This document shows, piece after piece, positions 2,696-60,424 of a DNA stretch of 64,000 bases. The DNA lies in contig JBJMGU010000220.1 of the NCBI GenBank assembly GCA_045807765.1, positions 12,796-76,795 of the forward strand. Reading direction: 5' to 3'. The notes below the pieces were generated by a model. It worked only from the letters and a program-made list of their open reading frames with translations, was not told the origin of the DNA and ran no database searches. Each line of letters begins with the position of its first letter. Position 1 is the stretch's first letter. This DNA comes from Blastocatellia bacterium. GTDB lineage: Bacteria; Acidobacteriota; Blastocatellia; UBA7656. Made by a program: the position numbers and the translations under genes.

Positions 2696-2707
2696 TTGTT
2701 CATCATT

Positions 2708-5700
2708 ATGCGGAGAAAGTTACTCATCGCCGCGCTCGCCTTACTCGGGGTCATACTTCTTTTATTCATTGCCGTCGTCTTCTACATTCGCAGCGGGCGG
2801 CTCGATCTCTACCTGCAATCACAGGTGATTGATGCGTTGAGCGACTTCGGCATACGCGCCGAAATCGGCAGCACCCACCTCGACCTTCGCGGCTACAAAG
2901 TGACGCTCGACGACGTGAAGCTCTATGCCGGCGATGCCCGCGAGCCGTTTGGCAAGCTCAAGCAGATGACCGCCGACTTCTCGGTGATCTCTTACCTGCG
3001 CCGCGAGATCAACATCACGCACGTCACCGTCAATCAGCCGGAAGTCTGGATGAGCGTGGACGCGCAGGGACGCTCTAACCTCGACAAGCTGCATGCGCCG
3101 CCCAGCAGCGAGGAAGAAAAGAAGAGTAGCGTCACCTTTCTGACCGCGTTGTTTGAAGTCAACAATGCGGCCTTCCACTACGACGACTTGCAGCGCAACA
3201 TTCACGCCGTCTTGCCCTTTGATCCCAGCAAAGACATGGCGGGGCTGACTTTGAAGCTGACGCCGCGCGAGCCGCGCGCCCTCGTGGACAAGATCAATCA
3301 CGACCTCGCGCTCAACTTTGACAAAGCGCAGATTATCCGCGACGGTCAGACGATCAACAACATTCAAGCCTCTGCCAGCGCCGTCGTTCACTACGATGAG
3401 AAGAACCGCGCCGAGCAGCGCATCGATGATCTGAGTTTCAAGTTCGGCTCCGATGTCGGCAGCATCAATGTCAGCGGCAACGTCGAAAGCTTCGCGCCGC
3501 TCAAGTACAACCTGCCGCAAGTCGAAGCGTCGGCGGCGCTTGAGCAGATCGCTAAAGTGTTCACGCCTGAAACGCGAATGAAAGGCGCGGTCGGCTTCAA
3601 AGGCGCGGCCAGCGGCGTGGATGCCGAGTACACGGCGAAAGGCTTGCTAACCTCGGACGCGCTGACCGCCGGCAACGTCACGGTCGCCGGCCTTCAGGTC
3701 AACGCCAACCTCAGCGGTAAAGGCGCGGATTATCACGCGACCGGCGAAGTCACATCATCGGCGCTCACCGCCGAAGGCTTTCGCGTCAGCGGCCTGCGCA
3801 TCAAGACTAACGTCGAAGGCAGCGGCGACGAGTACAACGCGACAGGGGCGCTTTCGACCGGGCAGGCAGCGGGCCGCGGTGTCGAAATCAGCTCGGTGCG
3901 CGTCGACGACGCTCGTGTCAAAGGCGAGGGCGACCGTTTTAATGTGAGTGCCGCGCTCAACGTGCCGGCGCTCAAGAGCGAGCGCATCAGCGTCAGCGGC
4001 CTCAGCGGGCGGCTGACGGCAGACCGCAGCAAAGTCAGTCTCGAATCGTTCGCTGCCGCGACGCTCGGCGGCACGGTCGCCGGCAGCGCGACCATCGCTT
4101 ATGGCGGCGGCGCATCGTCGGTTGACGTGCAATTCCGCTCACTCGATTTAGATCAAGCGGCGACGGCGGCGGCGGCTCGACAGGTGCAGGTGCGCGGCAC
4201 CGCAAACGGCACGGCGCGGTTGCAGTTCCCCGGCCTGGATTATCAAGCGGCGACCGGGCGCATCGATGCGACTTTTGACGCGGCGGTGTCGCCGGCAGAA
4301 TCATCCACTGAACCGCTGCCGGCCAAAGGCGAGATTGCGCTGGTCGCCAACGGGCGCGGCTTCAACGTCGAGCGCGCCTTCGTGCATTCGGCCAACAGCG
4401 ACCTGACCGTCACCGGCAGCATCGGCTGGAAAGGCGACGCCGATTTTGATGTGAAGTTCGACTCGGCGGATATGGCCGAAGTGCAGCGCGCCGTCGAAGC
4501 CTTTGGCCTCGTCACCGACGAGATGAAGCAGGATTACCCGGTCGCTTTGAACGGGCCGGGCCAGTTCACGGGTCGCGTGTCCGGCTCGCTCGACCATCCC
4601 GAAGTCAGCGGTCATCTCAAGCTCGATTCGATTCAATCCGCCGGCGACACAGTAAGCGACGTGCCGCCGCAAGAGGTCGGCTCGTTCGAAGGTGACATCG
4701 CTTACAGTCCCGCGCTGCTGCGCATAGACAATGCCGCGCTGGTCAGGCCGGACGGCTCGCGCGCCGACTTTTCGTTGACGGCGCGGCTCGACACGCAAGC
4801 GGCCAAAGATAAGAATGGCATCGCCGTCAAAGCCAACGTGCAGAGCTTTGACCTGCCAAGCCTGGTGCGCATGGCGCAGCCGGGGCTGGCCAACCTGATC
4901 GGGCGCGGCACGATCACCGGGACGATTGACCTGAAAGGATTGCCCGGCCCGCGCAGCATCGAAGGCACAGCCAACCTGTCACTCAGCGCCGGCGAATTCA
5001 ACCTACCTTCGACCGAAGAAGGGCAAGATGTAGCCAAAGTCACGGTTCCTGAATTTACTGGCAACATCACTTTCGCCAACAGCGAGCTTGCCGTTCAGAA
5101 CCTGCGCATGCGCATCGGCAACCAGTCAGAGATTCAAGGCGAGGGACGCTTCAACCTCGACACCTACGCTTATTCGCTCAACGCCACGGGCAAGAATATC
5201 GATCTCAGCGATCTCTCGCAAAAGCTTTCTGAGAGCGTGCGGATGACCGGCACCGCCGATGTCACAGTCACCGGTCAAGGCAAGTGGGGCAACACCGAAG
5301 ACTGGTCAGAGCTGAACCTCAACGCGCTGGTTCAAGGCCAGAACGTTACGTTCAACGGGCGCGACCTCGGCAATGCCAGGGTCACGGCAATCACCGAGAA
5401 TGGCTTGTTGAAAGTCGAAGCCACGGCCAACGTCCTCGATAAGCCGCGCACCCTCGCGGCGACCATCGATCTGCGTGACCGCGAAGCGTACCCGGTCAGC
5501 GCCAACATCGAATTCACCGACACAGATATTGGGCCTTACCTCGGACTGGTCGCGCCGGAGTTGAGCGGCATTTCAGGAACCGCTACCGGCACGATCAAAC
5601 TCAGCGGCCCGTTGCGTGATCCCGACAAGATTCAAGCCGTCGCCAACCTGACCAAGCTCGAATTCGGCGGCGCGATCACCGAGCGCCAGCGCTACACGAT

Positions 5701-7147
5701 TGCCAATCAAGGGCCGATCATTGTTACGGCTAGCCCCACAGGCGTTTCGATCAACCGCGTTACGCTGGTCGGCGAAGGCACGAGCATCACCATCGAAGGC
5801 ACGCTGGCGCGCAACGGCGGCGCGCAGTCGCGGCTCAACGTCAACGGCGAAGTCAACCTGCGGCTGCTGTCGTCGTTCACGCAGATCGCCTTTACGACCG
5901 GCATCGCGCGGGTTGACGCGTCGCTGGTCGGGCCGCTCGATTCGCCGCAACTGCTGGGCGTGGCGACGCTGCGCAACATCGGTGTGCGCGTCGTTGACGT
6001 GCCGCTCAGCCTGGCGCGCGGCAACGGCACAATTCGCTTTACCTCGAATCAAGCGGTGATCGAAAACTTCAGCGGCAATGCGCCGGGCGGCGGTACGATT
6101 CAAATCAGCGGCGGCGCGGCGCTCGCGGGACTTGTGCCGGATCGCTGGCGCATTGAAACGACGCTCGATCAGGTCGGCGTCGAGTACCCGCGCGACACGC
6201 AGACAGTGATTGATGCCGAACTGACGCTGCAAGGCAATCGCCGCGTCCAGGTGCTGTCGGGCAATGCCGAGGTGCGCCGCGCTTCTTACACCCGCGACCT
6301 GACGATTGAAGAATTGCTCGGCAGCAACGGCCCCTTATCGCCGACCTTCGTCGAAGTCGGGCCGGGCGGCGGCGGCGAAGGCGTCGGCGGTGGCGGCTTG
6401 CAAACCACGCTTGACCTGCGCATCACCGCAGACAACACGCTGATTATCAAAAACAACATCGCCGACGCGGTCGGCAGCGCCTATTTGAACTTGCGCGGCG
6501 GGTTGGATGCGCCGGTGATCTCGGGGCGCGTGCTGCTGTCGCGCGGCACGATTGAATTCCGGCGCGGGCGCTTCGAGCTATCGCGCGGCATTCTGACTTT
6601 GCCGCCGCGGCGCGGCGCTGATCTCAGCCTCGACTTGCAATCTGAAGCCGACATCAGCGGCTATCACATCACCGTTGGTTTCAACGGCACGCTTTCCAAG
6701 TTGCAGACGACCGTTTCTTCGGACCCGCCGCTGCCAGAGCCGGATATCATCTCGCTGGTGCTGACCGGCAGTGTGTCGGGCCAACGCACAGAAGTCGCAG
6801 CGGTGACGCAGACCGGGTTGGGGCTGGCGCAGTCTCTGTTATCCGCATCACTTTCGGAACAGATCGAGCGCGGCACCCAGCGCCTGTTCGGCACCAGCGG
6901 CAGCCGCTTCTCGATTGACCCGTTGTTGATCGGACGCGGCAGCGACCCGACGGCGCGCGTCACCTTTGGCCAGCGAATTACCAAAGACCTGACCGTGACC
7001 TATTCGCAGAACCTGACTTCGGGACCGTCGGGCATCGAGCGGGTGATCCTGGTCGAGTACCGCTTGAGCAATCGCTTCTCGGTCGTCGGCTACCGCAACG
7101 AGCGCGGCGAGCTGGGATTTGATGTACGCTTACGCAAACGCTTTTAA
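2708..7147 (+). CDS. tamB: TamB-like translocation and assembly module protein (AsmA-like N-terminus, DUF490 C-terminus)
   Basis: 1480 aa with an N-terminal signal-anchor TM (LLIAALALLGVILLLFIAVVFYI). The C-terminal ~150 aa match the TamB/DUF490 end (TFGQRITKDLTVTYSQNL...RVILVEYRLSNRFSVVGYRNERGELGFDVRLR). It is followed by an Omp85 gene. Confidence 0.7.
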   Translation: MRRKLLIAALALLGVILLLFIAVVFYIRSGRLDLYLQSQVIDALSDFGIRAEIGSTHLDLRGYKVTLDDVKLYAGDAREPFGKLKQMTADFSVISYLRREINITHVTVNQPEVWMSVDAQGRSNLDKLHAPPSSEEEKKSSVTFLTALFEVNNAAFHYDDLQRNIHAVLPFDPSKDMAGLTLKLTPREPRALVDKINHDLALNFDKAQIIRDGQTINNIQASASAVVHYDEKNRAEQRIDDLSFKFGSDVGSINVSGNVESFAPLKYNLPQVEASAALEQIAKVFTPETRMKGAVGFKGAASGVDAEYTAKGLLTSDALTAGNVTVAGLQVNANLSGKGADYHATGEVTSSALTAEGFRVSGLRIKTNVEGSGDEYNATGALSTGQAAGRGVEISSVRVDDARVKGEGDRFNVSAALNVPALKSERISVSGLSGRLTADRSKVSLESFAAATLGGTVAGSATIAYGGGASSVDVQFRSLDLDQAATAAAARQVQVRGTANGTARLQFPGLDYQAATGRIDATFDAAVSPAESSTEPLPAKGEIALVANGRGFNVERAFVHSANSDLTVTGSIGWKGDADFDVKFDSADMAEVQRAVEAFGLVTDEMKQDYPVALNGPGQFTGRVSGSLDHPEVSGHLKLDSIQSAGDTVSDVPPQEVGSFEGDIAYSPALLRIDNAALVRPDGSRADFSLTARLDTQAAKDKNGIAVKANVQSFDLPSLVRMAQPGLANLIGRGTITGTIDLKGLPGPRSIEGTANLSLSAGEFNLPSTEEGQDVAKVTVPEFTGNITFANSELAVQNLRMRIGNQSEIQGEGRFNLDTYAYSLNATGKNIDLSDLSQKLSESVRMTGTADVTVTGQGKWGNTEDWSELNLNALVQGQNVTFNGRDLGNARVTAITENGLLKVEATANVLDKPRTLAATIDLRDREAYPVSANIEFTDTDIGPYLGLVAPELSGISGTATGTIKLSGPLRDPDKIQAVANLTKLEFGGAITERQRYTIANQGPIIVTASPTGVSINRVTLVGEGTSITIEGTLARNGGAQSRLNVNGEVNLRLLSSFTQIAFTTGIARVDASLVGPLDSPQLLGVATLRNIGVRVVDVPLSLARGNGTIRFTSNQAVIENFSGNAPGGGTIQISGGAALAGLVPDRWRIETTLDQVGVEYPRDTQTVIDAELTLQGNRRVQVLSGNAEVRRASYTRDLTIEELLGSNGPLSPTFVEVGPGGGGEGVGGGGLQTTLDLRITADNTLIIKNNIADAVGSAYLNLRGGLDAPVISGRVLLSRGTIEFRRGRFELSRGILTLPPRRGADLSLDLQSEADISGYHITVGFNGTLSKLQTTVSSDPPLPEPDIISLVLTGSVSGQRTEVAAVTQTGLGLAQSLLSASLSEQIERGTQRLFGTSGSRFSIDPLLIGRGSDPTARVTFGQRITKDLTVTYSQNLTSGPSGIERVILVEYRLSNRFSVVGYRNERGELGFDVRLRKRF

Positions 7148-7170
7148 TGAATCAGCAAGACAAGAGGCGG

Positions 7171-10100
7171 ATGGGAAGACGAGGAGTAAAAGGCGATGCG
7201 GAGACGCGGCGACACGGCGACGCGGCGATGGATGAAATTATTCAACCGCCATCTTCGCTGAACTTTTTTCGGTTCTCCGCGTCTCCGCATCTCGGCGTCT
7301 CGGCGTCGGTGTTTCTCTGTTGCCTGTTGTTGTCGCTCTGCGCGCAGGCGCAGACGGTGGAATTTCTCGGGCGGCAAGTGACCGGCGTGACCATCGAGAT
7401 CGAAGGCGCGCCGGGCAGCACCGTGACCGAGATGCGCTCGCTGATTGATGTCGCGTCGGGACAGGATTATTCGCCGGGGCGCATTCACGATTCGCTGGTG
7501 CGGCTCTTTCGCTCAGGATTGATCGCCAACGCGCGCGTCGAAGCGACGGCAGATGGCGCCAGCGGCGTCGCCCTGCGCTTCTTCGTCCGTCCGCGTGCCC
7601 GCATCGATGCCATCGCCTTCGCGGGCACCCCCAACTTTCCGGCCACCGAATTGCGCGCCCGCCTGAATCAACTCGACCCTGGCCAGTTCGCCTCAAGCGC
7701 GGCGGTGCAACGCGGCCTCGGTGAGTTACAGGCATTCTATTCATCGCGCGGCTACCTCAAGGCGCAGATCACCTCTGACGTGCAGCTCGACCCGACCGGC
7801 ACGCGCGCGACGGTCATCTACACGATCAACCCCGGCGAGCAAGCCAAGGTTTCGAAGTTCGAGATTACGGTCAGAGGCGAGCGCCTCGACTTCAGCAAGC
7901 TGCCGCACACGATTGTTGAAGGCCAGCCGTTTTCGGCTTCAGCCGTGCAGGACGTGATGGATCACCTGCGCGACTTCTACCTCAACCAGGATTATCTTGG
8001 CGCGCGCATTACTCAGAACATTACGTCCGACGTAAACACCAACACGGTGGCGGTCGGCATCAATGTCGTTTCAGGGCCGAAGATCACGGTCAGCGTCGAA
8101 GGGCTGGACATCAGCCGTGATCAGATGCGCAAGACACTGCCCTTCTTCAGACAGGGCGGCGTCGATGACTTCTCGCTTGAAGAAGGCGCGCGCCGCCTGC
8201 GCGAGTATGCGCAGGGCAAAGGTTATTTCTTCGCCAGCGTGACGCGCCCGCAGGCCCCGCGCCGGACGCAGACGGCGGCGACGCTGGTTTATAAGGTGAC
8301 GACGGGCGGGCGTTACAAGCTGACCGACATCGAGATCAATGGGGTTGATGCCATCCCGCATCGCACGCTCGAAGAGCAGATGAAGTCGAAGCTGGCATCT
8401 TCGCTGCCGATTATCGGTAACCACTATGGCCTGACCAGTGACGATTACTTGCGGCAGGACGCCAACCTGATTCAGAAGCGCTTGCGCGAAGTCGGCTACC
8501 GGCGTGCTCACGTAGACGTGCGGCGCGGCGTGTCGCCGACCGGCAACAACCTGATCATCACCTACGACGTGCAGCAGGGACCGCGCACCTATGTCGAAGA
8601 GGTTGCCATTCGCGGCAATACGGTGTTGACCGTTGACGAGCTGCGGCAAGACCTGGAGATCAAGCAGGGCGAGCCGCTGGTGGCCTCGGTCGTCAACACG
8701 GATACGGAGCGCTTGCTTTCGGCCTACACGACGCGCGGCTATGCGTCGGCGGAAGTGGTTTCGGAAGCGGTCGAGCTTGGCACCTTCGAAGGCCAGGATC
8801 GTGTGCGCCTGCTGTTTGCAGTCAACGAAGGCAACCGCGTTCGCATTCAGAGTGTGACGACGCGCGGCACGGCGCACAGCGATACCGGGCGGCTCGAACG
8901 CGACTTCTACCTTTTCAAAGCCGGTGACTGGCTGCGCAACGATCTGCTGCAAGAGACCGAGCAACAGCTTTACGACACCAACGCTTTCAACTCGGTCAAC
9001 ATCACGTCTGAAGCGGTCGGCCAGACTGCCAACAACGTCGAAGAGCGCGCCGTCACCGTCAATCTGTTGGAAGCCAAGCGGCGCGACCTGTTGTTCGGCT
9101 TCGGCTATCAGGCAAACGTCAATACCAAGACGATCCCCGGCCTTGCTTTCCTGCACGGCCTCCGCGGCCTGACGCAGCTCACCTATTACAACCTCTTCGG
9201 CAAGCTCTACACCGGCAGCACGCAGATCCGTGTCGCCGAAAACGAGCTATTCGGACAGATTTCGTTGCAGAACCCGCGCCCGTTCGGCACACGATTCCCG
9301 ACGCTGTTTTCGCTCTTCGCGCGGCGGCTGGGCGAGCGCGACTTTCGCTCTGACCGCTACACGGCGTCGTTGCAGGCCGAGCGCCGCGTGACCCCGAACT
9401 TTATCGTCTTCGCCAGTTACAACTTCGAGCGCATCAGCATCTTTGGCCTGCCCTGTCAGTTGAGCGAAGTCGAGGCGGGCGATTGTCCCGGCCTGTCGCT
9501 GGAAGAGATTCAGCGCAACTCGCGGCCCATCCGCCTGGGGCACATCGGGCCGAGCTTCGCTTATGACACACGGGATAATAAATTTGATCCGACCCAGGGG
9601 ATGCAGACGATTGGCAGTTTTTATTTCGCCGCGAAGGCGCTGGGCGGCAACGAGCAATTCATTAAGCTCAGCCTTGAGCACAATCGTTACTACGCGCTGC
9701 CCCGCTTCCGCGACACGGTCTACTCGCTGTCGGGACGGGTAGGGCTGGCATCGCCGTTCGGTGGCCAAACCACGCTGCCGATCTCTGAGCGGTTCTTCGC
9801 CGGCGGCTCGCGCGACTTGCGCGGCTTCGGGTTTGAAGAAGCCGGGCCAACGATTCTGGTGCCGCAGCGCGACACGGCGGGCAACATCATTCGCAACTCG
9901 GATGGCACGCCGAAGCTGATGTTGAGCCCGCTGGGCGGCAACGCCGTGCTGGTCATCAACAATGAGCTACGCTTTCCGATCTGGCGCGACCTGGGCGGCG
10001 CGGTCTTTTCAGACACCGGCAACGTCTTCCAGCGCGTGCGCGACATGAAGCTGTCGAATATGACACAGACCCTCGGCTTCGGCGTGCGGGTTAAAACGCC

Positions 10101-10200
10101 GGTAGGCCCTGTGCGCTTTGACGTCGGCTTCCTGGTCTTCAACAAGCCGCCGGGCTATGCCAGTTATCATCTCCACTTCACGATTGGACAGACGTTCTAA
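7171..10200 (+). CDS. bamA: Omp85-family outer membrane protein assembly factor BamA (POTRA repeats + C-terminal beta-barrel)
   Basis: About 1010 aa with a signal peptide (..SASVFLCCLLLSLCAQAQ), multiple POTRA-like repeats and a C-terminal barrel ending in terminal Phe (HFTIGQTF). Start is ambiguous between ATG 7171 (after AGAGG) and 7228. The 5' end overlaps tandem-repeat hairpin B. Confidence 0.8.
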   Translation: MGRRGVKGDAETRRHGDAAMDEIIQPPSSLNFFRFSASPHLGVSASVFLCCLLLSLCAQAQTVEFLGRQVTGVTIEIEGAPGSTVTEMRSLIDVASGQDYSPGRIHDSLVRLFRSGLIANARVEATADGASGVALRFFVRPRARIDAIAFAGTPNFPATELRARLNQLDPGQFASSAAVQRGLGELQAFYSSRGYLKAQITSDVQLDPTGTRATVIYTINPGEQAKVSKFEITVRGERLDFSKLPHTIVEGQPFSASAVQDVMDHLRDFYLNQDYLGARITQNITSDVNTNTVAVGINVVSGPKITVSVEGLDISRDQMRKTLPFFRQGGVDDFSLEEGARRLREYAQGKGYFFASVTRPQAPRRTQTAATLVYKVTTGGRYKLTDIEINGVDAIPHRTLEEQMKSKLASSLPIIGNHYGLTSDDYLRQDANLIQKRLREVGYRRAHVDVRRGVSPTGNNLIITYDVQQGPRTYVEEVAIRGNTVLTVDELRQDLEIKQGEPLVASVVNTDTERLLSAYTTRGYASAEVVSEAVELGTFEGQDRVRLLFAVNEGNRVRIQSVTTRGTAHSDTGRLERDFYLFKAGDWLRNDLLQETEQQLYDTNAFNSVNITSEAVGQTANNVEERAVTVNLLEAKRRDLLFGFGYQANVNTKTIPGLAFLHGLRGLTQLTYYNLFGKLYTGSTQIRVAENELFGQISLQNPRPFGTRFPTLFSLFARRLGERDFRSDRYTASLQAERRVTPNFIVFASYNFERISIFGLPCQLSEVEAGDCPGLSLEEIQRNSRPIRLGHIGPSFAYDTRDNKFDPTQGMQTIGSFYFAAKALGGNEQFIKLSLEHNRYYALPRFRDTVYSLSGRVGLASPFGGQTTLPISERFFAGGSRDLRGFGFEEAGPTILVPQRDTAGNIIRNSDGTPKLMLSPLGGNAVLVINNELRFPIWRDLGGAVFSDTGNVFQRVRDMKLSNMTQTLGFGVRVKTPVGPVRFDVGFLVFNKPPGYASYHLHFTIGQTF
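7193..7311. repeat. GACGCGGC-type tandem-repeat hairpin (family copy 1 of 3)
   Basis: Left arm gcgatgcggagacgcggcgacacggcgacgcggcgatgg (7193-7231); right arm tctccgcgtctccgcatctcggcgtctcggcgtcggtg (7274-7311). The arms are made of octamer units GCGGAGAC / GCGGCGAC and their complements GTCTCCGC / GTCGCCGC. It lies 45 nt after the tamB stop and overlaps the bamA start and signal-peptide region. Confidence 0.7.
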
Positions 10201-10213
10201 TGAGAAGGCGAAA

Positions 10214-10341
10214 GACGACACGGAGACGCGGAGACGCGGCGAGGGAGAAAACGATGAAAGGCCGCAACGACAGGAAACCTATAGGCGACAGGCAAGCATC
10301 CCCGATCTCCGCGTCTCCGCGTCGCCGCGTCGCCGCGTCTC
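10214..10341. repeat. GACGCGGC-type tandem-repeat hairpin (family copy 2 of 3)
   Basis: Left arm gacgacacggagacgcggagacgcggcgaggg (10214-10245) and right arm ccccgatctccgcgtctccgcgtcgccgcgtcgccgcgtctc (10300-10341) share their units with the 7193 and 31295 elements. It begins 14 nt after the bamA stop. The 3' end of the left arm contains GGGAG, a likely SD for ATG 10254. Confidence 0.7.
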
Positions 10342-11000
10342 TTTTGATCCTTGCCTTTTGCCTTCCACATTCTGCCGGGGCGACAGCCCCGCAGAATGTG
10401 GTGGATCAGATCATTGCGCTGGTGAATGACGAGATCATCACGCGCAGCGATTTGCTGTGGAGTTTGGCGATGGACCCGCAAGCGCCCAGCCCGGCGGAAG
10501 GGGTTAGCTCTGAGTTGCTGCGCCAGAAGCTCGACGTGATGCTCGATCAACGGTTGATTGCGCAGGAAGCGCGCCGCGTGCCGACCGCCGAGATTACTGC
10601 CGAAGATATCAATCAGCGGCGCGCGGCGCTAGTGAAAGGATTTCGCTCGGAGCAGGCATTCTTACAACGCACAGGGGCGGTCGGCCTGACCGTGGCGCGG
10701 GTTAACGACTTGATCCGCGAGATGCTGTTGATTGAGCGCTTCGTCGACTTTCGCTTTCGCTCGTTCATCTTTGTGACTGAGGCAGAGATTCAGCGCTATT
10801 ACGACGAAACGCTGGCGCCGCGCATCCGCGAGCGCGGCCAGGTGGTGCCGGGGCTCGATGACCGGCTGCCGAATGAAAACATTACCGTGCGCGCTCGCAT
10901 CACCGAAATCATCCGCCAGCAGAAGATCAATCAGGAGATTGACCGCTTCCTCAACGCCACCCGCCAGCGCGCCGACATCACCATTCTCACCGAGCCGTAG
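10254..11000 (+). CDS. SurA N-terminal-domain periplasmic chaperone (no PPIase domains)
   Basis: About 249 aa with a signal peptide (RRRVAASLLILAFCLPHSAGA). The SurA_N-like segment is VVDQIIALVNDEIITRSDLLWS...LDQRLIAQEARR. It is too short to carry parvulin domains. ATG 10254 is preceded by GGGAG; the track ORF starts at 10200. Confidence 0.6.
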   Translation: MKGRNDRKPIGDRQASPISASPRRRVAASLLILAFCLPHSAGATAPQNVVDQIIALVNDEIITRSDLLWSLAMDPQAPSPAEGVSSELLRQKLDVMLDQRLIAQEARRVPTAEITAEDINQRRAALVKGFRSEQAFLQRTGAVGLTVARVNDLIREMLLIERFVDFRFRSFIFVTEAEIQRYYDETLAPRIRERGQVVPGLDDRLPNENITVRARITEIIRQQKINQEIDRFLNATRQRADITILTEP

Positions 11001-19597: not shown

Positions 19598-19710
19598 CGG
19601 ACAGAATAAACCACAGATGAACACCGATGAACACGGATCAAACAGAACATGAGGGGTGTGCCGTCTTGACCATCTGTGTTTATCTGTGTTCATCTGTGGT
19701 TTATTCTGTG
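19598..19710. repeat. intercistronic tandem-repeat hairpin (AT-rich, unit ~CAGATGAACA)
   Basis: Left arm cggacagaataaaccacagatgaacaccgatgaacacggatcaaacagaacatgagg; right arm ccatctgtgtttatctgtgttcatctgtggtttattctgtg. The core is a 23-bp perfect stem (cagaataaaccacagatgaacac), and the extension has two G-T oppositions (G-U in plus-strand RNA). It starts 1 nt after the stop at 19597 and ends 12 nt before ATG 19723. Confidence 0.75.
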
Positions 19711-27469: not shown

Positions 27470-27581
27470 GCAGAAATGATGAATGATGAATAGATGAATG
27501 ATGAATAAAGGCAGGGGATTGTCTATAGAAAATCCGGCTGCCGTTTCCTCTTCAGTTCATCCTTCATCATTCATCATTTTC
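27470..27581. repeat. intercistronic tandem-repeat hairpin (unit ATGAATG; centred on palindrome TCTATAGA)
   Basis: Left arm gcagaaatgatgaatgatgaatagatgaatgatgaataaagg; right arm cctcttcagttcatccttcatcattcatcattttc. The distal 18 bp are a perfect stem. The centre ggcaggggattgtctatagaaaatccggctgcc contains a perfect 8-bp palindrome, tctataga. It starts 1 nt after the potB-like stop. Confidence 0.75.
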
Positions 27582-31294: not shown

Positions 31295-31392
31295 GCGACA
31301 CGGCAACGCGGCGACGCGGCGAGGGAAAGATAGATAGAATGACTGCTGACTTTCTTTCCCCGCGTCGCCGCGTCGCCGTGTCGCCGCGTCAC
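31295..31392. repeat. GACGCGGC-type tandem-repeat hairpin (family copy 3 of 3)
   Basis: Left arm gcgacacggcaacgcggcgacgcggcgagggaaag; right arm ctttccccgcgtcgccgcgtcgccgtgtcgccgcgtcac; 24-nt AT-rich loop. It lies between two minus-strand genes, 5 nt beyond the LolD-like stop and 32 nt upstream of the HDAC-like start. It shares the junction motif CGCGGCGAGGGA with the 10214 element. Confidence 0.75.
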
Positions 31393-31396
31393 TTTC

Positions 31397-32110
31397 CTAG
31401 ACGGTGACGGGCGGGGCGGTCTTCTCTTCGTCCACGACCAGGCCGTCGAACACGTGCACGGTGCGGTCGGCGTGCGAGGCATAGCGCTGGTCGTGCGTCA
31501 CCATGCAGATGGTCGCGCCCTGTTCGTGCAATTCGCTGAGCAGTTCCATGACCGCTTCGCCGTTGACCGAATCGAGGTTACCGGTCGGCTCGTCGGCGAG
31601 CAGGATCAGCGGATCGCCGGCGACGGCGCGGGCGACGGCGACGCGCTGCTGTTGACCGCCAGAGAGCTGGCTGGGCAGATGCTTGGCGCGGTGCGCCATA
31701 CCGACGCGCTCAAGCGCCGCGCGAACGCGGTCACGGCGCTCATTGGCGCGCATGCCGCGATAGGTGAGCGGCAGCTCAACGTTCTCGTAAACCGAGAGGT
31801 CGCCGATGAGGTTGAAACTTTGAAAGATGAAACCGACTTCGCGGTTGCGGATGCGGGCGCGCTCAGACAAGGGCAGATCGGCAACCGGTTTGCCGCCGAG
31901 CCAGTAGCCGCCATCGGAAGGCGAGTCGAGGAGACCGAGAATCGACAGCAAAGTGGATTTGCCGCATCCCGATGGTCCGGCGATTGAGATATACTCGCCG
32001 CGCTCGACTTCAAGGTGAATGCCCGACAGCGCATGGGTTTCGACTTCGTCGGTGAGAAAAACTTTGGTCACGCCTTCGAGCTTGATCAGCGGTTGATCGT
32101 TCGCGCTCAT
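31397..32110 (-). CDS. ABC transporter ATP-binding protein, LolD/MacB-type (no adjacent permease)
   Basis: Walker [10 protein letters not shown], signature [14 protein letters not shown], Walker [13 protein letters not shown]-loop TICMVTHD. Confidence 0.8.
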
Positions 32111-45436: not shown

Positions 45437-45811
45437 TCAAGGCGTCTTCTGTTCCAGCTTGTCGAGGCGGTCTTCGAATATCTCGTGTTCGGCCCGCACC
45501 TGCAAAACTTCTTCCGCGAGCATCCTAAATTTCTTGTTGAGCAGGACGAACTGCCTATCAACGTCGGCGAACCGCTGATTCATCTCCGAACGTAATGATT
45601 GAATCTCGGCAGTCAGGCCAACGCGCAGTTGATCCTGGCCAACGCGCAGTTGATCCTGGCCAATACGCAATTGTTCTTGCCCAACGCGCAGTGTTTCAAT
45701 CTCCGCTTTCAGGCCGTCACCAATTTCATTGAGGCGTTCCAGCACCGTGGTTATGGGCTGGCTGTCGTATTGTGTCTCATCGGGCAGTTTGTTTGTCGGG
45801 TCGTCGCTCAT
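45437..45811 (-). CDS. small coiled-coil protein (paralog of 35273-35635) with internal 21-nt tandem repeats
   Basis: 124 aa containing LRVGQEQLRIGQDQLRVGQDQLRVG, encoded by about 3.5 tandem 21-bp DNA repeats at 45617-45690. It shares N- and C-terminal motifs with the 35273 gene. Confidence 0.55.
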   Translation of the reverse strand: MSDDPTNKLPDETQYDSQPITTVLERLNEIGDGLKAEIETLRVGQEQLRIGQDQLRVGQDQLRVGLTAEIQSLRSEMNQRFADVDRQFVLLNKKFRMLAEEVLQVRAEHEIFEDRLDKLEQKTP

Positions 45812-60330: not shown

Positions 60331-60424
60331 AGGAAACAGGAAGCAGGAGGCAGGAAGCAGGAAGCAGGGCAGAAGATTGTGGCTGCCTGTCTCCTGCCTC
60401 CTGCCGCCTGCCGCCTGCCTCCTC
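60331..60424. repeat. intercistronic tandem-repeat hairpin (unit GCAGGAA/GCAGGAG vs CTGCCTC/CTGCCGC)
   Basis: Left arm aggaaacaggaagcaggaggcaggaagcaggaagcagggcag; right arm ctgcctgtctcctgcctcctgccgcctgccgcctgcctcct; 10-nt loop. It starts 1 nt after the coaD stop and ends 8 nt before ATG 60433. Confidence 0.7.

Follow-up and report, generated by a model that had tools for sequence, protein, structure and literature searches.

Does the long inverted repeat between a bamA-like gene and the SurA-like gene behind it tie the synthesis of the two proteins together? The question is raised by a 64,000-nucleotide stretch of DNA, here called the window, from a Blastocatellia-like acidobacterium. The window has a GC content of 0.606, and its best protein matches are in Blastocatellia MAGs. 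A preliminary description of the junction proposed that the SurA-like gene starts at ATG 10254, that a hairpin hides this codon and its SD, and that a ribosome finishing bamA opens the stem.

On the plus strand, a TamB-like ORF (2696-7147) is followed by a BamA-like ORF (7147-10200), which contains five POTRA domains and an Omp85 domain, and by a SurA_N-like ORF (10200-11000), which encodes 266 residues if read from ATG 10200 and 248 residues if read from ATG 10254. The SurA_N match of the last ORF is weak and falls below the Pfam cut-off. The bamA-like gene ends with TAA at 10198-10200, and the next codon in its frame is TGA. An ATG at 10200-10202 overlaps this stop (TAATG, 10198-10202), is in frame and open, and represents the likeliest SurA-like start. 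TAATG is present at both the tamB-bamA and the bamA-SurA-like junction, in each case with an in-frame ATG overlapping the stop. The alternative start, the internal in-frame ATG at 10254-10256, is codon 19 counted from 10200. It is preceded by an SD-like GGGAG at 10243-10247, and the resulting GGGAG-N6-ATG looks on paper like a good ribosome-binding site; the spacing is 6 nt rather than the 8 nt given originally. A scan of 9800-10600 returned no terminator-like site, and no promoter-like site was found in the junction.

The hairpin at this junction, designated hairpin C, is present where it was first placed. Its inner arms, at 10216-10242 and 10306-10332, are 27 nt long and 89% complementary. 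The arms can also pair in two alternative registers, 10223-10242 with 10322-10341 (20 nt, 95% complementary) and 10217-10253 with 10303-10339 (37 nt, 76% complementary). Both arms are tandem arrays of the 8-nt unit GACGCGGN, inverted relative to each other and 63 nt apart, with 3 units (GACRCGGN) in the left array and 4.5 of its complement in the right. The inner left arm is sequentially composed of GACACGGA, GACGCGGA and GACGCGGC, followed by GA. The right arm extends over 10306-10341 with its 4.5 tandem TCKCCGCG units, lies in frame within the ORF and codes for ISASPRRRVAAS in the signal-peptide n-region, in agreement with the preliminary description. The inner arms are enclosed by an outer stem between 10204-10214 (GAAGGCGAAAG) and 10355-10365 (CTTTTGCCTTC). 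The left strand of the outer stem is what remains of a GGCAAAAG-type unit, a type found in relatives at the bamA/SurA-like junction, and the right strand falls in the signal peptide's hydrophobic core (LLILAFCLP). The preliminary description, which is accurate but for minor shifts in position, placed the hairpin 14 nt past the bamA stop; the outer stem begins 4 nt past it. The loop (10248-10305) codes for KTMKGRNDRKPIGDRQASP, and its sequence is unrelated to those of the sister-copy loops. A separate hairpin at 10365-10401, with a 15-bp stem of CCACATTCTGCCGGG and CCCCGCAGAATGTGG (93% complementary) and a 7-nt loop, spans the signal-peptide cleavage region and has a weaker counterpart in L004, the closest species representative.

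All hairpin structures described here are predictions. The 171-nt fold has a minimum free energy of -71.5 kcal/mol, compared with -56.0 +/- 4.3 kcal/mol for dinucleotide shuffles (z -3.61), and none of 200 shuffles is as stable. In the minimum free energy structure of 10150-10420 (271 nt), GGAGA at 10244-10248 pairs with UCUCC at 10306-10310, so that GGAG (10244-10247) of the SD-like sequence is held by CUCC (10307-10310). The AUG at 10254-10256 pairs with CAU at 10297-10299 and has a predicted probability of being unpaired of 0.02-0.05. Forcing 10240-10270 open would cost 13.7 kcal/mol. The predicted fold thus agrees with the proposal that the SD-like GGAG and ATG 10254 are occluded by the start of the right arm.

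The proposed opening of the stem fares less well. A ribosome on a stop codon covers roughly 12-15 nt downstream. When 10186-10213 is kept open as a stand-in for the footprint of a ribosome at the bamA stop, the outer stem melts in the predicted fold, whereas the inner 27-bp stem and the pairing of AUG 10254 stay. Termination alone would thus not unmask the ATG 10254 site.

The position of the start codon was addressed by comparing 36 junctions from the clade of the window, with at least 50% identity. An ATG abuts the bamA stop, at -4 to +8 nt of the stop end, in 25 of them. All 25 are in frame, against one third expected by chance, and 23 of the 25 are open to the conserved VVDQ motif. Junctions with an open stop-abutting ATG include ones with inserts, up to a junction length of 296 nt. 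The string ATGAGA(AGG) is kept in L004, L084 and L205. In L084 and L205, which have ATGAGAAGG in common with the window, the stop-overlapping ATG is the sole usable start and no internal ATG is present. The start of the hairpin-free L004 takes the form TGATG, and the sequence codes for MRLRRCILILVLCLPLSAGA. The tamB-bamA junction served as a replicate of the in-frame test: an abutting ATG occurs in 11 of 62 cases, 10 of them in frame and 7 open, a heterogeneous result that is weakly supportive. A homologue with 98% identity (P0001) has its start called at the ATG equivalent to 10254. Because 25 of 36 relatives have an ATG next to the bamA stop, always in frame and in 23 cases open, ATG 10200 is likely, as judged from these sequence comparisons, to be the start of the SurA-like gene and is its best candidate; ATG 10254, the start favoured at first, is the less likely choice.

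With ATG 10200 as the start, hairpin C would span about codons 2-56. Compared with L004, the window contains 123 additional nucleotides between ATGAGA and TTGATCC, corresponding to 41 stop-free codons. If, and only if, translation starts at ATG 10200, the hairpin represents an in-frame palindromic insertion, as it is a multiple of 3 nt, stop-free and absent from L004. The resulting pre-sequence of 61 residues is long by the standard of Sec signal peptides. To open the region around ATG 10200 would require a predicted 16.6 kcal/mol with the hairpin and 12.2 kcal/mol in hairpin-free L004, which indicates a small predicted added effect of the hairpin at this codon. The opening energy of the ribosome-binding site was dropped as a discriminator, since hairpin-free junctions also show values of about 12 kcal/mol and, for overlapping starts, it does not tell the junction classes apart.

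Hairpin C belongs to a dispersed repeat family and is not specific to this locus. Matches to the two-unit pattern number 19 in the window, against an expectation of 2.5. Sister copy A (7192-7307, plus strand) belongs to the unit family of hairpin C and lies in frame at the 5' end of the bamA-like ORF. It starts about 45 nt past the tamB stop, which overlaps an in-frame ATG as TAATG at 7145-7149. The bamA pre-sequence includes copy A in frame (MNQQDKRR...SASPHLGVSAS); in L001 the tamB/bamA overlap is the same and the inner palindrome a different one. Sister copy D (31295-31390) is located between the minus-strand genes 31397-32110 and 30328 to about 31264, with no gene start inside. It nevertheless contains the same GAGGGA...ATG string (GAGGGAAAG...ATG) as the junction, so GGGAG and ATG 10254 may belong to the element rather than have evolved as a ribosome-binding site. 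Hairpins A, C and D have common arms and unrelated loops. The loops of these three window copies measure from 20-63 nt, taken between the best-aligned arms, to 38-67 nt, taken between the tandem arrays, and differ in sequence.

Hairpins with other units are present in the window as well. They are found at 2602-2696 (unit AGGAGTC), 19601-19709 (unit CACAGATGAA), 27475-27578 (unit AATGATG) and 60331-60423 (unit AGGAAGC), the last three between co-directional plus-strand genes and beginning directly after the upstream stop. All seven window hairpins lie at co-directional gene junctions, the first arm mostly a few bases past the upstream stop. At 2602-2696, (AGGAGTC)x4 and (TTCTGAC)x3 fill the spacer from the TAG of ORF 1362-2603 to the tamB-like ATG 2709, and there is no SD between the right arm and this ATG. 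The window also carries a tandem repeat of a 21-nt unit, GGCCAACGCGCAGTTGATCCT, at 45616-45692 (3.7 copies, 83% matches).

The repeat class is composed of two short tandem arrays of 7-8-nt units (GGAGACGC/GGCGACGC here), inverted around an unrelated loop of 40-140 nt, and is common in Blastocatellia (Acidobacteriota). In most cases the first array begins shortly past the stop of the upstream member of two co-directional genes. In 736 kb of related loci, 124 strong hairpins are present. The arms of 66 are clearly periodic, mostly with period 7 and with many different units. A gene stop lies within -8 to +12 nt of the arm edge in 45 of these 66 (mode 0-7 nt). The pattern CGCGGMGACGCGG-N40-70-CCGCGTCKCCGCG occurs in at least 120 metagenome contigs with a GC content of 0.54-0.73. 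Among the listed metagenome matches, the loop centres are unrelated, with a 9-mer in common in 35 of 7021 pairs. Flanks of 10 nt beyond the core show complementarity at 4.95 of 10 positions in these matches, compared with 3.39 in shuffled pairs (0 of 2000 shuffles). Direct repeats resembling target sites are not seen among the same matches (flank likeness 2.19, against 2.12 in shuffled pairs). The GGAGACGC-type hairpin is very widespread (at least 120 contigs), and many copies are flanked by ...TCA/CGCGGAG...CTCCGCG/TGA...; the listed metagenome copies L085-L204 also bear locus-specific complementary flanks. The ORF-based context of the listed metagenome loci was set aside: of 106 elements, 50 lay "inside" an ORF, but GC-rich DNA yields spurious long ORFs that confound this count.

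Orthologous junctions were compared in 80 loci from different Blastocatellia and Pyrinomonadaceae species and several metagenome contigs. The order of bamA and the SurA-like gene is conserved, and about 70 related species have the two next to each other. Between the bamA stop and the VVDQ motif lie 65 to 497 nt. Most junctions of more than about 130 nt contain a long-range hairpin, the left arm located 0-8 nt past the stop and the right arm in the signal-peptide coding region. Short junctions, including that of L004 (74 nt gap), contain no hairpin. The units differ between lineages: GGCAAAAG in L002, GTAAAAG in L001 and L005, GGCAGCAG in L012, GGGTAAAG/GGGGAAAA in about 20 Pyrinomonadaceae, and TTAGTCC in L033 and L034. 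L084 (70% identity) carries a related copy of the GACGCGG type whose left arm is short, and L205 (80% identity) has right-arm-type units alone, without a left arm. The latter array, at 2384-2470 of L205, is made of three CCGCGTCG units in frame after the stop-overlapping ATG; such an array is thus able to persist in a coding region without a hairpin. That hairpin C evolved as a device for this junction is not supported, since it is a copy of a dispersed repeat whose place is taken in close relatives by other units or by none.

Left arms at the bamA/SurA-like junction of L001-L083 are mostly purine-rich with SD-like cores (AAGG, GGAG, GAGG), and hairpins elsewhere often have non-SD units (AGTGACA, GTCAGTT, AGCTATT); both observations are uncorrected for shared ancestry. 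Many Pyrinomonadaceae (L040-L079, at about 5590-5720) carry a short-loop hairpin of inverted heptamer arrays directly 3' of the SurA-like stop, with the units AGTGACA, CGTAAAT, AGAGGTC and others and a terminator-like look.

These features are best accommodated by a model in which a conserved overlapping start provides the coupling and a repeat copy at most reinforces it, and we consider this overall reading moderately probable. Initiation at ATG 10200 would tie the SurA-like protein to BamA synthesis through the stop-start overlap, by termination and reinitiation at UAAUG. The reinitiated ribosome would unwind the hairpin during elongation. If the RNA folds in vivo as predicted, the stem, beginning 4 nt past ATG 10200, would bury the internal GGGAG and ATG 10254 and keep free 30S subunits off both AUGs. 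This would suppress independent ribosome entry, and the gene would be reached mainly by ribosomes coming from bamA. The 123-nt excess, 41 codons, would lengthen the n-region of the signal peptide, and the element would be tolerated there rather than selected. Complementarity of the arms could be kept by repeat slippage and copying between arms, or by selection for pairing. Coupling of the two genes by the stop-start overlap is likely, and the hairpin may reinforce it. The original proposal of coupling itself is plausible, given the adjacency of the genes in about 70 species and a junction without promoter-like or terminator-like sites; a hairpin built for the junction is not supported.

The hairpin may instead be a pure passenger, a selfish or neutral palindrome that persists where it is harmless, in spacers and insertion-tolerant n-regions, and is kept unfolded by coupled transcription-translation and the ribosome helicase, with no effect on expression. 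This is a serious possibility, if a somewhat unlikely one. Turnover among close relatives is fast, the element being absent from L004 and reduced to an orphan right arm in L205, and the loops of this widespread family are unrelated. Purifying selection on the host gene would be expected to leave the insert in frame and free of stops. A hairpin is found at 22 of 71 bamA/SurA-like junctions, a frequency that, by a rough inference, is close to the density expected if the 124 hairpins were confined to the roughly 10% of the DNA that is non-coding. Among the sense-strand stems identified by symmetric scoring, G:U mismatches are about as frequent as A:C mismatches (41 and 34 at the junction, 163 and 138 elsewhere); the counts thus give no sign of RNA-level selection on pairing and are uninformative on the strand. 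What a passenger explains poorly is that the arms stay complementary across species despite the change of unit. Each arm pairs better with its own partner (30-36) than with those of other species (16-31; 0 of 10,000 permutations), so both arms change together. The left arms, moreover, adjoin stop codons very consistently, and the predicted stems are very stable.

The model of the preliminary description, with initiation at ATG 10254 in a site that is hidden by the hairpin and exposed by the ribosome finishing bamA, is unlikely for the window, yet its geometry is the real one in the Pyrinomonadaceae clade. About 20 species of that family share a layout in which the bamA stop is followed by a left arm ending in AAGG, an ATG, and a right arm within the signal peptide. 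In-frame stops in the left arm place the start after it, behind AAGG, and the predicted opening costs are 15-36 kcal/mol. For the window itself, the predicted pairing of SD and AUG with its cost of 13.7 kcal/mol, a left arm 4-16 nt past the stop, the call of P0001 from the equivalent ATG and the well-spaced GGGAG are consistent with the model. Against it, the inner stem and the AUG pairing are predicted to survive the footprint at the stop, the SD lies about 45 nt beyond that stop, ATG 10200 is the conserved start in the clade, with L084 and L205 devoid of an internal ATG, and GAGGGA..ATG recurs in element D without a gene start.

A broader conjecture extends the role of the hairpins to the whole clade. 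Stop-adjacent inverted-array hairpins would form an as yet undescribed, Blastocatellia-wide class that enforces coupling by concealing all entry sites from free ribosomes at junctions such as tamB-bamA-surA-like. Their left arms would consist of SD-like runs (GGAG, AAGG, AGGAG) and their right arms of anti-SD-like runs, and they would renew themselves by slippage and inter-arm copying, keeping structure while sequence turns over. We regard this as quite improbable.

A role in mRNA processing or stability, in which cleavage by RNase III or a block to exonucleases would give bamA and the SurA-like gene different half-lives, is highly doubtful. With 27-40 bp, the stems are of a size that RNase III accepts as substrate, the hairpins directly follow stop codons, and related loci have short-loop versions just 3' of the SurA-like stop; however, a cut in the stem would sever the SurA-like coding region, and the wobble pairs show no strand bias. 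A transcription terminator or attenuator, or a phase-variation switch operated by slippage of the 8-nt unit, is extremely improbable: a stable hairpin after a gene end would suit the former and the frameshift expected from gain or loss of an 8-nt unit the latter, but the intrinsic terminator is rejected by the lack of a T-run and of any terminator-like site in 9800-10600 and by the 63-nt loop, the 98%-identical P0001, read from the common ATG, is as long as the product of the SurA-like ORF and differs from it in unit sequence only, and both the bamA and SurA-like genes are probably essential.

Translational coupling is known both from UAAUG or AUGA overlaps and from hairpins that sequester a ribosome-binding site, as in rpmI-rplT and MS2 coat/replicase. 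The junction resembles such coupled systems in its TAATG overlap, its downstream initiation region that is buried in the predicted fold, and its lack of a separate promoter-like signal. It differs from the sequestering hairpins of rpmI-rplT and MS2 in that the stem is a dispersed repeat, of which an upstream ribosome is predicted to reach the outer 11 bp only.

Palindromes within coding regions have counterparts elsewhere. Rickettsia palindromic elements are reportedly inserted in frame in ORFs, as ascribed to Ogata and co-workers in 2000. REPs inside genes have also been described (Di Nocera et al. 2013, PMC3733652). Hairpin C is like both in that the palindrome is located in a coding region, is a multiple of three, is stop-free and occupies a tolerant part of the protein. 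In contrast to both, its arms are short-unit tandem arrays, the loops are unique and there is no conserved full-length consensus. Like REP, BIME and REPIN elements, which RAYT transposases mobilise, the hairpins are multi-copy intergenic palindromes, often past gene ends in operons, and are co-transcribed. Assignment to REP/REPIN was rejected, since there is no 20-40-bp stem with a 2-5-nt loop and no GTAG tag, and the loops are long and unique (PMC3733652); GACG, the reverse complement of CGTC, is contained in every unit of hairpin C and does not serve as an end tag. A MITE was also rejected, as the loops are unrelated and direct-repeat flanks are absent in the three window copies and the listed metagenome matches.

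The closest resemblance is to heptamer arrays. In Xanthomonas, 70 of 186 arrays of the heptamer GGGAATC are arranged in convergent pairs that could form stem-loops (Rehm et al. 2015, PMC4692102). They are found at conserved intergenic sites, vary in length and are of unknown function (PMC4692102). The present elements share with the inverted heptamer pairs of Xanthomonas and Nostoc the tandem units of the 7-nt class and the two nearby convergent arrays, and, like the Xanthomonas pairs, vary in length and sequence between relatives at a shared intergenic site. In contrast to those of Xanthomonas and Nostoc, they comprise many unrelated units per genome, of 7 or 8 nt, have loops of up to 140 nt, abut stops with their arms, are in some copies in frame in signal-peptide coding sequence, and reside in Acidobacteriota. 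Most units here also lack G-quadruplex potential. Direct TAACTGA heptamer arrays lie upstream of start codons in Beggiatoaceae, cyanobacteria and Bacteroidetes (MacGregor 2015, PMC4679880), where a role in translation was suggested, not shown, and a single inverted case was reported (PMC4679880). These are similar in being intergenic tandem heptamers near starts with few canonical ribosome-binding sites nearby, and dissimilar in that the elements here are inverted pairs forming long hairpins. No Rfam model matches the whole window at the gathering threshold, and the junction at E <= 1 gives sub-threshold plant miRNA-precursor models alone, which reflect generic long hairpins and are meaningless. 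A literature search found no paper with these unit sequences or describing the class in Acidobacteria; a paper on intrastrand triplex repeats proved unrelated.

The hairpin belongs to an abundant, so far uncharacterised repeat class of Acidobacteriota, and the value of the finding lies less in hairpin C itself than in this class, for the annotation of starts and for regulatory-RNA screens. The N-termini of many MAG proteins are translated repeat arms (RQKAKGK...FAFCLLP, RGDAETRR...SASPRLRV, QMNTDK...ICVHLW). Among the SurA-like homologues, the N-termini of P0008-P0020 consist of translated arms (RQKAKGKRQKAK...FAFCLLPFAFCL; QMNTDKK...FICVHLW). Called lengths consequently range from 204 to 304 residues, and start calls in these MAGs are unreliable. 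A strong, "covarying" hairpin recovered by a regulatory-RNA screen at a conserved site of these genomes is not necessarily a dedicated regulator. The persistence of complementary arms despite unit replacement, with unique loops and none of the hallmarks of transposons, points to an undescribed mechanism of origin and maintenance. As for the operon itself, BamA and the SurA-like chaperone belong to one pathway of outer-membrane assembly, and making them in a fixed ratio would be biologically sensible; the analysis suggests that this ratio is set by the conserved stop-start overlap.
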